Translations under genes and position numbers: made by a program | Shown: positions 26,680-30,257 of the stretch, piece after piece | How positions within the stretch are numbered: position 1 is the first letter of the stretch | How the letters are laid out: each line of letters opens with the position of its first letter | Notes under the pieces: generated by a model | What the model was told of the DNA's origin: nothing | What the model saw: only the letters and a program-made list of their open reading frames with translations | Database searches by the model: none | From: Candidatus Micrarchaeia archaeon | Lineage (GTDB): Archaea; Micrarchaeota; Micrarchaeia; Burarchaeales; JAVZCV01 | Assembly: GCA_038874215.1 (NCBI GenBank) | Contig: JAVZCV010000012.1 | Span: 1-35,276 of the forward strand | Length of the DNA: 35,276 nucleotides | Reading direction: 5' to 3'

Positions 26680-28239
26680 TCACAATTCTCTCACATCTAT
26701 CCTAAACCCCACCTTTTTTTCCATCTGGGCTATCCTCTTCCCCTTCCGCCCTATAACGCGCGGCACATCCTCCGTGTGCAAATATAATACGACCTTTTTT
26801 CCCTCCACCCTCACATCAAAGTCCCTTCTCGCAAATTTAGAAACGAGCCTCCGTATAACAGCCTCAACCTGAACAGAACCATCTCTCTTTAACTCTTCTA
26901 TCGGCGCAACAACAACCTCCTCACCGAATTTGTAGAGTTCATACTCTATGTAGCCAGTTTCAAAGTCCTTCACTTCTATAACGGGTCTTGCCAAGTCTTC
27001 ATCAGACATTCCGTGCGGAACCTTTATCTTCATGTTCAGATCGTACACCTTCGCTATATCACCGTTTGCTATATGTATTACCGTATCAACTATCTGCGGT
27101 ATCATCCCCATGTCAACCCGCCCGACAAACCTCTGTATCGCATCTATCGGCCGTGTTGCATGCACAACGCCAACCATGCCCACCCCTGAAAGCCGCATAT
27201 CCGCAAAAATTTTGAAATCCTCTGTTTTTCTCATTTCATCATATATTGTGTAATCCGGTCTGGCGAGAAGAAGTATATCTGATGTTTTCTCAAAACTGCC
27301 TTCAAGAGGCGAGTATTGCGTTATCTCATCAGAAACCTGCAGATCGCGCGGCGACTCCATCGTTTTCACTATCTTCCCCCTGCCCATGTAAAACTCTGCA
27401 AGGGCTGCAGTGAAAGTGCTCTTGCCAGCGCCAGGGGAACCACATATAACTATTCCCTCCGCCCTTTCAGACAGCCTCCTCATAAGTTTCTCAGAAATTG
27501 TGTAGCCCTCAATGTTCATCTTTGCTATCGGCCTTACTATTGTTATCTCCATTCCATCTGAGAAGGGCGGTTTTGCTATTGCTATTCGGAATTCTGAGAG
27601 TTGCACGACCGTTGCACCCCGCCTGTCAAGCTCTATATATGAATTTGGTGAGCGTTCGGCGCTCTCAACAATCTCTTTTGCAAGTGCGCGCAGTTCAGCT
27701 GCGGTGCATTTCCTATCGGATAGCGTTACCAGCTTCACATCACCTGGTTTCCCGATTTTCGCTTTCGGGACAACATTCTCCTTAAGATGCACAGAGAGCG
27801 TATCTCTCGTAAAATACTTCTTAAATGACAACTCCTGCTTTGTCTGAATCGGCTCAAGATACATCACTTCCAATCCCTCTGCCTCTGCTACTGCACACTG
27901 CACCCTATCAGAGCTTATCAGAGTAGCGTTCATGTGGGCGGCTATCTCACGTATTTTTGCATCAATTTCCCCATATTTCGCCCCCCTTATCTCTTGGTAT
28001 GTCGGTCTCTTGCCCCCGTATTCCAGCGTTATCTCCCCTCTCTCTGCCATTTCCAAAAGCGTATTTATCTCATCTATCCCAGTAAACCCTATCTCCTTAT
28101 TCATGTTTGCTTGGTGTTCAAGCTCTGCTATAACAGCATACGGCACTATTACTTTTGCACCCCTCAGTTCCCCATTCTTGACTAACTCAGTTATCCTGCC
28201 GTCAATTATTACGCTAGTATCAACAACAAAAACTCTCAT
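26680..28239 (-). CDS. PINA ATPase (PIN - PilT-like ATPase - KH)
   Basis: VDTSVIIDG PIN domain, GSPGAGKST, ESPRDL, DEMR, GVVHA, C-terminal KH VIGRKG. Confidence 0.92.
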   Translation of the reverse strand: MRVFVVDTSVIIDGRITELVKNGELRGAKVIVPYAVIAELEHQANMNKEIGFTGIDEINTLLEMAERGEITLEYGGKRPTYQEIRGAKYGEIDAKIREIAAHMNATLISSDRVQCAVAEAEGLEVMYLEPIQTKQELSFKKYFTRDTLSVHLKENVVPKAKIGKPGDVKLVTLSDRKCTAAELRALAKEIVESAERSPNSYIELDRRGATVVQLSEFRIAIAKPPFSDGMEITIVRPIAKMNIEGYTISEKLMRRLSERAEGIVICGSPGAGKSTFTAALAEFYMGRGKIVKTMESPRDLQVSDEITQYSPLEGSFEKTSDILLLARPDYTIYDEMRKTEDFKIFADMRLSGVGMVGVVHATRPIDAIQRFVGRVDMGMIPQIVDTVIHIANGDIAKVYDLNMKIKVPHGMSDEDLARPVIEVKDFETGYIEYELYKFGEEVVVAPIEELKRDGSVQVEAVIRRLVSKFARRDFDVRVEGKKVVLYLHTEDVPRVIGRKGKRIAQMEKKVGFRIDVREL

Positions 28240-28260
28240 TCAACTACCTCCGCTAAAAGG

Positions 28261-28404
28261 CTATTCAACGGTTCCTGCAACACCCAATTCAGCCGCGGCT
28301 TTGCTCACTGCCCTTGAAACGTTTTTTACAACATTTGGATTAAAAATACTTGGCACAACCCTCCTTTCGTTCAATCCTCCCTCGGAATATTTCCTATTCG
28401 TATT
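28261..28404 (-). pseudogene. Probable remnant of the C-terminus of a malic enzyme
   Basis: Stop-to-stop frame reads ..SEGGLNERRVVPSIFNPNVVKNVSRAVSKAAAELGVAGTVE*, resembling the malic enzyme C-terminal pattern (IIPSxFxxxVxxxVAxAVAxAAxxxGVA). An in-frame TAA lies upstream at 28405-28407. Confidence 0.5.
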
Positions 28405-28493
28405 TTAAAAACGATACTAATACGATGCCTTTTAATTGTTTGTTGGCCCTAAATTTAATGCTGGTGGTTTTTTTGATATCCGGCGAGGAAGTA

Positions 28494-28955
28494 ATGGACA
28501 AGATAACTTCTATTTTTTCTAAGAAAGAGAAAAAAAGGCGAGATAGGTCAATCGCCTTTTTTGTTGACGGGCCGAACATTATACGCAAAGAAATGAACGT
28601 AGACCTTGCCGATGTAAGGAAAAAAGTTGCAGAGTACGGCGATATAAAAGTGTGTAAGGTTTTTCTTGATCAATACGCTTCTGAGAAATTGATAGAAGCG
28701 ATGGTAAACCAGGGGTATACACCCGTTATAACAACAGGAGATGTTGATGTTATGATGGCTGTTGAGGCGACAGAGCAGATATTCAACCCAAAAATAGATA
28801 CCATAGCGATCATGACACGCGATATAGATTTCAGGCCCGTTCTCGTGAAGGCAAAGGAAATGGGGAAGGAAACCATACTTGTTGGTGTTGAGCAGGGATT
28901 TAGCGCCGCATTAAAGAACACTGCCGACATTTTAATAATAGCGAAGACACGATAG
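28494..28955 (+). CDS. NYN-domain protein (TIGR00288-like)
   Basis: FVDGPN, GDVDV, TRDIDFRP, GFSAALKNTAD; start at ATG 28494 or TTG 28473. Confidence 0.88.
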   Translation: MDKITSIFSKKEKKRRDRSIAFFVDGPNIIRKEMNVDLADVRKKVAEYGDIKVCKVFLDQYASEKLIEAMVNQGYTPVITTGDVDVMMAVEATEQIFNPKIDTIAIMTRDIDFRPVLVKAKEMGKETILVGVEQGFSAALKNTADILIIAKTR

Positions 28956-28998
28956 TGTTTTTAAACTTCCCATTTAATATTCCGATGTGGTGGCTTGA

Positions 28999-29220
<222 letters not shown>

Positions 29221-29234
29221 AACGCAAAATAAAG

Positions 29235-29406
29235 TGGGCCCGCGGAGGTTTCCGCATTTTTGGAACCAACCGCATCGAACTCCGAATCTTCACCGCTCCA
29301 AGCCTTTTGGCAATCAGCCAAAAAGCCTGTCAGGGTGACGTCTTACCATTGCCGAACACAATTCTTTCTTGAGTTCCAAGAAAGAAAGTTCTTCGACTAC
29401 GGGCCC
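29235..29406 (-). tRNA. tRNA-Val(GAC) containing three BHB introns (15/16, 37/38, 59/60)
   Basis: Exons 29406-29392, 29348-29328, 29295-29274 and 29248-29235 join to a 72-nt cloverleaf GGGCCCG TA GTCG AATGGTA AGAC G TCACC CTGACAC GGTGA AGATT CGGAG TTCGATC CTCCG CGGGCCC A. Introns are 43, 32 and 25 nt, each with a 4-bp central helix and 3-nt bulges. Confidence 0.9.
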
Positions 29407-29428: not shown

Positions 29429-30121
29429 CTATTTTGGTATTATCAGGGCAGCGAGCAGCAAAACCAACACAATTGCAGGGATAGGGCAGCAGCAAAGACC
29501 CCCCCCAGACTCCTTTTCATACACTTCCTTCAACGACCTTTTTAGATCCTGTGCATTTGAAGCGTTATAATATTTACCGCCAGTCACATTTGCAACTTGC
29601 CTGAGCTGATTCTCTGCATTTGAACCGGGGGATACATCATAGCCTATAGTGTGTATAACGCTTACCCCTCTGCTCTTCGCATACTCTGCGGCCTTTGCTG
29701 GCGCGCTGCTTGAATCGCACGTTTCTTCACCATCCGAGAGCAGTATTATAACCTTCTTGCTGTAATGGGCATTTGAAACTGCATAGTCAGTCGCGTTTCT
29801 TATCGCGCGCGCAATCGGCGTACTGCTGTCTGGCTCAACACTCTGAACGGCAGATTTCAAAGATTCAAAATCTGTGGTGAATTCGCTTACGATTCTTATA
29901 TCATTGCAATCGTAGAAAACGATGAGCGCTACCTCATCGCTTGTACTAACAGAATCAAGGAACTCTACCGCAGCAGATTTTGCTGCATCTATCTTTCTTT
30001 CGCCTGTATCAAGCTCCTCCTCCATACTTCCGCTCGCATCCAACAGCAGAACATACGATGTTCCCGCCACCGTAGTGGCACATAAAAACAACAGAAACAA
30101 GAAAACCAATCCATTCTTCAT
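29429..30121 (-). CDS. Secreted, membrane-anchored vWA-domain protein
   Basis: Signal peptide, MIDAS DASGSM, STPIA, LLSDGEETC; C-terminal GGGLCCCP plus TM helix. Confidence 0.88.
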   Translation of the reverse strand: MKNGLVFLFLLFLCATTVAGTSYVLLLDASGSMEEELDTGERKIDAAKSAAVEFLDSVSTSDEVALIVFYDCNDIRIVSEFTTDFESLKSAVQSVEPDSSTPIARAIRNATDYAVSNAHYSKKVIILLSDGEETCDSSSAPAKAAEYAKSRGVSVIHTIGYDVSPGSNAENQLRQVANVTGGKYYNASNAQDLKRSLKEVYEKESGGGLCCCPIPAIVLVLLLAALIIPK

Positions 30122-30185: not shown

Positions 30186-30257
30186 TGGACCGAGCGGGAT
30201 TCGAACCCGCGGCCTCCTCGACGCCAACGAGGCACGCTACCACTGCGCCATCGGCCC
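30186..30257 (-). tRNA. tRNA-Ala(GGC), intronless
   Basis: GGGCCGA TG GCGC AGTGGTA GCGT G CCTCG TTGGCGT CGAGG AGGCC GCGGG TTCGAAT CCCGC TCGGTCC A; G3:U70 alanine identity pair; no encoded CCA. Confidence 0.95.

Follow-up and report, generated by a model that had tools for sequence, protein, structure and literature searches.

A tRNA-Val(GAC) gene of a Micrarchaeota archaeon with three predicted bulge-helix-bulge introns that escapes standard tRNA finders

The genome of a tiny, hot-spring Micrarchaeota archaeon (1.13 Mb, 45% G+C, 91% complete and 1.1% contaminated) contains a single detectable tRNA-Val(GAC) gene, and we hold with high confidence that this gene is functional and carries three protein-spliced bulge-helix-bulge (BHB) introns, which would be cut by an epsilon2-type splicing endonuclease (EndA) and whose flanking exons would be joined by the ligase RtcB. 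The gene was analyzed within a window of 35,276 nucleotides, i.e. the whole stretch of DNA under study, where it occupies positions 29406-29235 of the minus strand, 172 nt that include the discriminator A at 29235. The initial annotation of this DNA had described a 172-nt minus-strand segment bounded at both ends by a perfect acceptor stem, and its coordinates and letters proved correct: the gene begins with GGGCCCG at its 5' end and finishes with CGGGCCC and the discriminator A at its 3' end, and CCA is not encoded.

The gene is divided in four exons and three introns, all read on the minus strand. Exon 1 (29406-29392, 15 nt) includes the 5' strand of the acceptor stem, U8, the 5' strand of the D-stem, A14 and A15; exon 2 (29348-29328, 21 nt) contributes the rest of the D-arm, the 5' strand of the anticodon stem and the anticodon loop through A37, with the anticodon GAC; exon 3 (29295-29274, 22 nt) includes C38, the 3' strand of the anticodon stem, a variable loop of 5 nt and the 5' strand of the T-stem, and runs into the T-loop through position 59; and exon 4 (29248-29235, 14 nt) completes the molecule with position 60, the 3' strands of the T-stem and the acceptor stem, and the discriminator A. 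Intron 1 (29391-29349, 43 nt) is placed in the D-loop between positions 15 and 16, intron 2 (29327-29296, 32 nt) at the canonical site 37/38, and intron 3 (29273-29249, 25 nt) in the T-loop at 59/60. The exons sum 72 nt, and when they are joined by coordinate ARAGORN names the product tRNA-Val(gac), which bears out the earlier claim that a 72-nt cloverleaf remains after removal of three inserts. The introns account for 100 of the 172 nt, that is, the 58% that had been estimated; their G+C content is 37-50%, and that of the exons 61%. Just 3' of the gene there is a T-rich tract (29219-29233, minus strand) that is likely a transcription stop. T-tracts of a similar kind were observed 3' of many of the other tRNA genes detected here.

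With respect to the genomic neighbourhood, a run of RNA-related genes (26683-29217) lies beside the Val(GAC) gene and includes those for a PIN + ATPase + KH protein (26683-28239, minus strand), an NYN-domain nuclease (28350-28952, plus strand) and an LSM/Sm protein (28999-29217, plus strand). Upstream there is an intronless tRNA-Ala(GGC) gene (30186-30257, minus strand), and a 230-aa vWA-domain gene (29432-30121, minus strand) is placed between the two tRNA genes. In several relatives (e.g. loci L006 and L011) the Ala(GGC) and Val(GAC) genes are approximately 100-165 nt apart.

Each of the three introns shows the features of a BHB motif, and the bulges, central helices and register of the cuts that had been proposed from the letters were all present. 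The central helix has its four base pairs in every case (GTCG/CGGC in intron 1, CTGA/TTGG in intron 2 and TTCG/CGGA in intron 3), it is flanked by bulges of 3 nt (AAG/AAT, CAG/AGC and ATG/AAC, respectively), and at every junction the predicted cut falls after the second bulge base. The motifs differ in their accompanying helices. The motif of intron 2 is a strict hBHBh', with an outer helix (h) of 5 bp provided by the anticodon stem and an inner helix (h') of 10 bp, and its BHB score of 18 is the highest value that our finder (see below) can assign; intron 3 uses the T-stem as an outer helix of 5 bp and has an inner helix of 2 bp. Intron 1 has no outer helix (0 bp), as implied by its previous description as relaxed, and includes an inner helix of 3 bp plus a hairpin of 10 bp; it is therefore of the relaxed HBh' type, which needs an enzyme of broad specificity. 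The three motifs can be drawn at once on non-overlapping segments, with 54 of 54 standard pairs and an energy of -54.4 kcal/mol; this conformer is not the minimum-energy fold of the unspliced RNA, which is of -78.9 kcal/mol. A C/D-box guide was not found in any of the three introns, and no other genomic copies of them were found except for intron 1, which is homologous to the intron that the Val(TAC) paralogue has at 15/16 (92.6% over 27 nt). In one relative of the same class (G034) the pyrimidine/purine hairpin of intron 1 (query positions 20-45) gave weak repeated matches in at least 8 places (87-88% identity, E 0.02-0.28; e.g. C5:27489-27551 and C19:7036-7097), some of them approximately 40 nt apart, which could represent a repeat family or just low complexity.

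The unspliced gene escapes standard searches. ARAGORN gives no tRNA on the 172 nt, and Rfam gives none at the gathering threshold, nor for tRNA when the region alone is searched at E <= 10. A SNORD49-like Rfam match at E 6.6, well under the threshold of that family, was taken as chance, and the Ser and Lys identities that the ARAGORN intron option returned on partly spliced versions of the gene were discarded as wrong. The gene was recovered with a custom finder that starts from any 7-bp acceptor pair with a U8, takes out as many as three segments (five in later runs) that follow a BHB rule, and scores the remainder as a cloverleaf with a maximum of 25. Applied blind to the region, this program ranked the same set of three introns first, with a score of 24/25. 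The anticodon stem (5/5), the T-stem (5/5) and the T-loop motif (5/5) were complete, and the sole deduction came from the D-stem (3/4 pairs), in which the mismatch G13-A22 accompanies three pairs and is identical in all orthologues. On the reversed sequence of the region the finder gave nothing. In the genome-wide analysis, which covered 296 kb on both strands after ORFs of at least 150 aa had been trimmed and masked, 33 loci were obtained on the real sequence versus 4 on the reversed one, and 27 versus 0 at a score of at least 24; an earlier and narrower run gave 23 versus 3 loci, and 19 versus 0 at that score. The control loci, 3-4 in number, had scores of only 21-22.

The DNA itself was confirmed by a separately assembled contig from one sequencing run that spans the whole stretch and that shows two differences in the 451 bases compared, a base change at 29376, in a hairpin loop, and an extra base at 29387/29388, in an internal loop. 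Both are in intron 1 and none is in the exons or in the BHB cores. Given that this run may be the source sample, the contig confirms the sequence and does not count as independent biology.

Related genomes provide a comparison between interrupted and uninterrupted versions of this gene. A DNA search of 40 relatives of the same order or class revealed that the exon blocks recur, either abutting or separated. The finder was run on 19 of the loci from these relatives, and under strict settings 14 of them gave a valine tRNA gene; relaxed settings on the five remaining loci yielded only G013 (D-loop and 37/38 introns with unsure boundaries) and an ambiguous case, G017. Thirteen of the 14 are Val(GAC) genes that share 62-69 of 71 bases with the predicted product. 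Nine of these 13 are intronless, 71 nt in length and identical to it at 62-68 of the 71 bases (G022, G014, G024, G007, G026, G004, G025, G002 and G012). The other four are interrupted: G008 and G018 once, at 37/38; G005 twice, at 15/16 and 37/38, with 69/71 identical bases; and G001 also twice, at 15/16 and 59/60. The fourteenth gene, from G021, is a Val(CAC) gene with introns at 15/16 and 59/60. The intronless orthologues, including that with 68/71 identical bases, reach 65.9-69.7 bits on the Rfam model RF00005 (cut-off 29), scores that belong to the orthologues and not to the spliced product; for the intron-bearing valine genes at loci L006 and L009 there was no Rfam match, as occurs with the gene studied here.

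Exon 2 is 100% conserved in 13 of 13 Val(GAC) genes of the relatives, exon 1 is equal to that of the intronless orthologues except at acceptor positions 5/6, and mature positions 7-43 are essentially invariant among Val(GAC) genes. The introns found at the same sites in G005, G001, G021, G008 and G018 (2-4 introns per site) are unrelated in sequence and nonetheless keep their central and inner helices. The strand that pairs with GTCG is CGGC, TGAT or TGGC, that which pairs with TTCG is CGGA or CGAA, and each inner helix is formed by entirely different bases.

Three other readings of this locus were considered. One of them accepts a real gene and questions the number or boundaries of its introns; intron 1, for instance, could have its cuts displaced inwards by one or two bases, or the D-loop insert could be excised in another register. 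The finder indeed allows three other boundaries for intron 1 (29390-29350, 29389-29351 and 29395-29355) with similar BHB scores. This intron has no outer helix, and the D-loop of the orthologues alone decides among the boundaries. That evidence is uniform: the D-arm produced by the 29391/29349 splice is present in 14 of 14 related valine genes, intronless ones included, and the D-loops of 9 or 11 nt that the alternatives would generate are present in 0 of 14. Given that positions 7-43 are essentially invariant, the D-loop is fixed and the three shifted boundaries were rejected. In favor of this reading it can also be noted that exon 1 and intron 1 share a terminal AA, as a result of which an identical RNA is obtained whether the cut is made at 13/14, at 14/15 or at 15/16. 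Altogether, we consider a different set of introns very improbable. Another reading is that the cloverleaf is a chance resemblance created by fitting three deletions to intergenic sequence. Three free deletions can force many sequences towards a cloverleaf, and the reversed control did yield its few loci; however, no control locus reached a score of 24, the product is 62-69/71 identical to real orthologous tRNAs, and the unspliced RNA has a fold z of -6.45, with none of 200 shuffles folding as well. We regard this explanation as effectively refuted.

It could also be argued that the locus is a decaying tRNA pseudogene whose insertions are not removed, and that another tRNA reads the valine GUY codons. 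The incompleteness of the genome (91%) gives some room for this idea, given that the assembly could lack another copy. Nonetheless, a decaying gene is hard to reconcile with exons in which all stems are intact and which are identical at 69/71 bases to the gene of G005 and at 68/71 to an intronless orthologue, or with the preservation of a 4-bp central helix and 3-nt bulges at three junctions. The two strain differences described above are both in the interior of an intron and none is in an exon. Furthermore, GUU and GUC represent 58.5% of the valine codons in the long ORFs of this genome and another GAC gene was not found, and 24 of the 27 tRNA genes detected with high confidence are built alike. 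This reading was therefore left with a very small probability. With regard to the missing copy, one of the checks proposed together with the initial annotation was whether another Val(GAC) gene exists; neither ARAGORN, nor BLAST of the gene against the genome, nor the finder revealed a second one, a result that favors the three-intron gene and that, in a genome 91% complete, leaves a small chance of a second copy. The gene is almost certainly essential.

The preferred reading, a functional gene with three BHB introns, requires an endonuclease able to cut relaxed motifs, and a candidate for such an enzyme is encoded in this genome. There is a single EndA gene (contig C2, 35656-36813 of the genome under study, G000), whose product of 385 aa has its closest homologues in proteins that carry the source name Candidatus Micrarchaeota. 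In Pfam the protein shows the N-terminal domain and two stretches of the catalytic-domain family, and its residues 5-385 align to residues 7-387 of PDB 4fz2, the three-unit epsilon2 EndA of ARMAN-2, with an E value of 1.3e-138. When the 4fz2 alignment was read against the numbering given in the published description of the ARMAN-2 structure (Hirata 2012, PMC3488258), the catalytic triad Y233/H248/K279 aligned with Y236/H251/K282 of ARMAN-2, and K158 with K161 of the specificity loop, which is of equal length in both proteins. The architecture of this EndA, which had been singled out for classification, is thus of the single-chain three-unit epsilon2 type, which comprises alphaN, alpha and betaC units. 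For the ARMAN-2 enzyme, cleavage of relaxed BHB substrates by the homodimer has been reported (PMC3239211; PMC3488258), and in these accounts the loop with K161 confers cleavage of relaxed BHB motifs in vitro, including that of a T-loop intron at 59/60. The relaxed-specificity endonuclease that the initial annotation had predicted is consequently supported, at the level of sequence, by a full-length epsilon2 homologue in which the triad and the specificity lysine are kept. An RtcB ligase is also present in the genome.

From these elements we infer the following pathway in vivo. A precursor of approximately 172 nt would be transcribed, with one intron in the D-loop at 15/16, one in the anticodon loop at 37/38 and one in the T-loop at 59/60; the single three-unit, epsilon2-type endonuclease would cut each bulge after its second base; RtcB would then join the four exons to form the 72-nt body; and CCA would be added after exon ligation.

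The structure of the Val(GAC) gene is not an exception in this genome. ARAGORN or Rfam detect only 16 tRNAs, and the finder adds genes with multiple introns, in agreement with the suspicion that standard annotation misses this tRNA and others. At a score of at least 24 the finder census comprises 27 high-confidence genes, 3 of them intronless, 11 with one intron, 7 with two and 6 with three, so that at least one intron is present in 24 of the 27. The genes with three introns are those for Ser (GCT), Ile (TAT), Gly (GCC), Val (GAC), Lys (TTT) and Leu (TAG). It had been stated previously that three introns in one tRNA are rare; this holds in general, and it does not hold in this genome, where 6 of 27 genes have them. 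Regarding their location, 18 of the 43 introns are at 37/38, 11 at 59/60, which is the second most used site, 3 at 56/57 and 2 at 53/54; the D-arm contains another 8, and the anticodon stem the remaining one. From these counts, Val(GAC), with introns in the D-loop, at 37/38 and at 59/60, follows the triple pattern that is typical of this genome. In 27 of the 43 introns the dinucleotide AA is right before the 3' cut; the finder selected neither for this ending nor for the frequent use of 59/60. The two other valine tRNA genes are a Val(CAC) gene at C1:84557-84668 and a hidden Val(TAC) gene (C4:3094-3253, plus strand) with an intron of 46 nt at 15/16, another of 43 nt at 59/60 and an uninterrupted 37/38 site.

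Misplacement of the introns explains why ARAGORN, run with its intron option, misnames several genes: 'Stop(tta)' at C6:39441-39554 is Gln(TTG) when the BHB boundaries are used, and by the same procedure 'Gly(ccc)' at C1:68719-68810 becomes Arg(CCG) and 'Ser(cga)' at C13:20247-20377 becomes Thr(CGT). Approximately 19 anticodons of the standard archaeal set, among them those of Glu, Cys, Trp, Gly TCC, Pro TGG, Ser TGA and a second Met, were not found by ARAGORN, Rfam and the finder census, which is partial. Low-scoring Rfam or ARAGORN loci were observed at C14:21279-21437, C21:3770-3940, C29:3125-3255 and C3:15560-16092. Candidate genes with four or five introns appeared only as solutions with scores of 22-23, the level of the reversed-sequence null, and were rejected. 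An identical stretch of 18 nt is shared by the 37/38 intron of Pro(CGG) (C1:80290-80321) and the D-loop intron of Gly(GCC) (C4:38446-38501); by analogy with what has been proposed for Thermoproteales, this hints that introns may move between tRNAs and between positions. Across the 40 relatives, the number of tRNAs detectable with Rfam goes from 2 to 44 per genome. Families f2, f6 and f7 have low counts (7-17) and most members of f8 reach 22-37, and these ranges hold even among genomes reported as at least 90% complete; the differences between families indicate that fragmentation varies by lineage.

The Val(GAC) genes of the sister genomes, with 0, 1, 2 and 3 introns at the same three sites, may constitute a natural series from which the gain and loss of BHB introns at 59/60 and other hot spots could be worked out. 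What is useful for such a study is that closely related genomes differ in the presence or absence of introns at fixed sites; both the mechanism and the enzyme have already been described. For annotation, the correction adds a tRNA that reads over half of the valine codons and that standard pipelines miss. Any survey of Micrarchaeota genomes based on ARAGORN or Rfam will yield badly incomplete tRNA sets, and the resulting low counts might mistakenly be taken for genome reduction or host dependence.

The type of gene and the enzyme that cuts it are already known from Micrarchaeota, given that T-loop introns and the endonuclease were described in 2011-2012. In Candidatus Micrarchaeum acidiphilum ARMAN-2, 56% of the tRNA genes are reported to be disrupted, with introns at various positions (Fujishima 2011, PMC3239211); the examples given there include an intron at 59/60 in tRNA-Cys and introns at 53/54 and 59/60 in tRNA-Pro, and the same report describes the epsilon2 EndA as active on canonical as well as relaxed motifs, and the presence of a tRNA-Ile(UAU) in ARMAN. 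Reviews place ARMAN-1 and ARMAN-2 among the lineages with multiple-intron tRNAs, and the maximum of three per gene that they mention is described for Thermoproteales. A paper dealing with three-intron tRNAs in Micrarchaeota was not found in the literature searched, whose scope did not extend to the supplementary gene table of ARMAN-2. The present genome is like ARMAN-2 in its phylum, as indicated by the names of the EndA homologues, in its three-unit EndA, in its varied intron sites that include 59/60, and in having a tRNA-Ile(UAU). It differs in the extent of the disruption, which affects 24 of 27 genes, six of them with three introns, compared with the published 56% and the examples with one or two introns that accompany that figure.

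In the Thermoproteales, up to three BHB introns per gene have been described, at canonical and non-canonical sites (Sugahara 2008, as cited in PMC4033280 and PMC8450103), and among the complete genomes assessed in the tRNAscan-SE 2.0 paper the highest density given is that of Pyrobaculum calidifontis, with 71 introns in 46 genes. Our archaeon resembles them in that its genes carry multiple BHB introns and are hidden from plain tRNA finders; the density of its tRNA set, 43 introns in 27 genes or approximately 1.6 per gene, is comparable to that published maximum or above it. Somewhat doubtfully, the tRNA gene set of this lineage may be the most intron-dense yet seen, and its undetected genes may include some with more than three introns, with introns in the stems, or in split or permuted form. 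Unlike the Thermoproteales, it belongs to another phylum and has an epsilon2 EndA with an ARMAN-type loop, whereas theirs is described as an (alpha-beta)2 enzyme with the crenarchaeal loop. Finally, an arrangement in which introns interrupt three arms of the molecule is also found in one eukaryotic nuclear tRNA gene; the endonuclease in that case is different, and the similarity in layout implies no evolutionary link with the gene described here.
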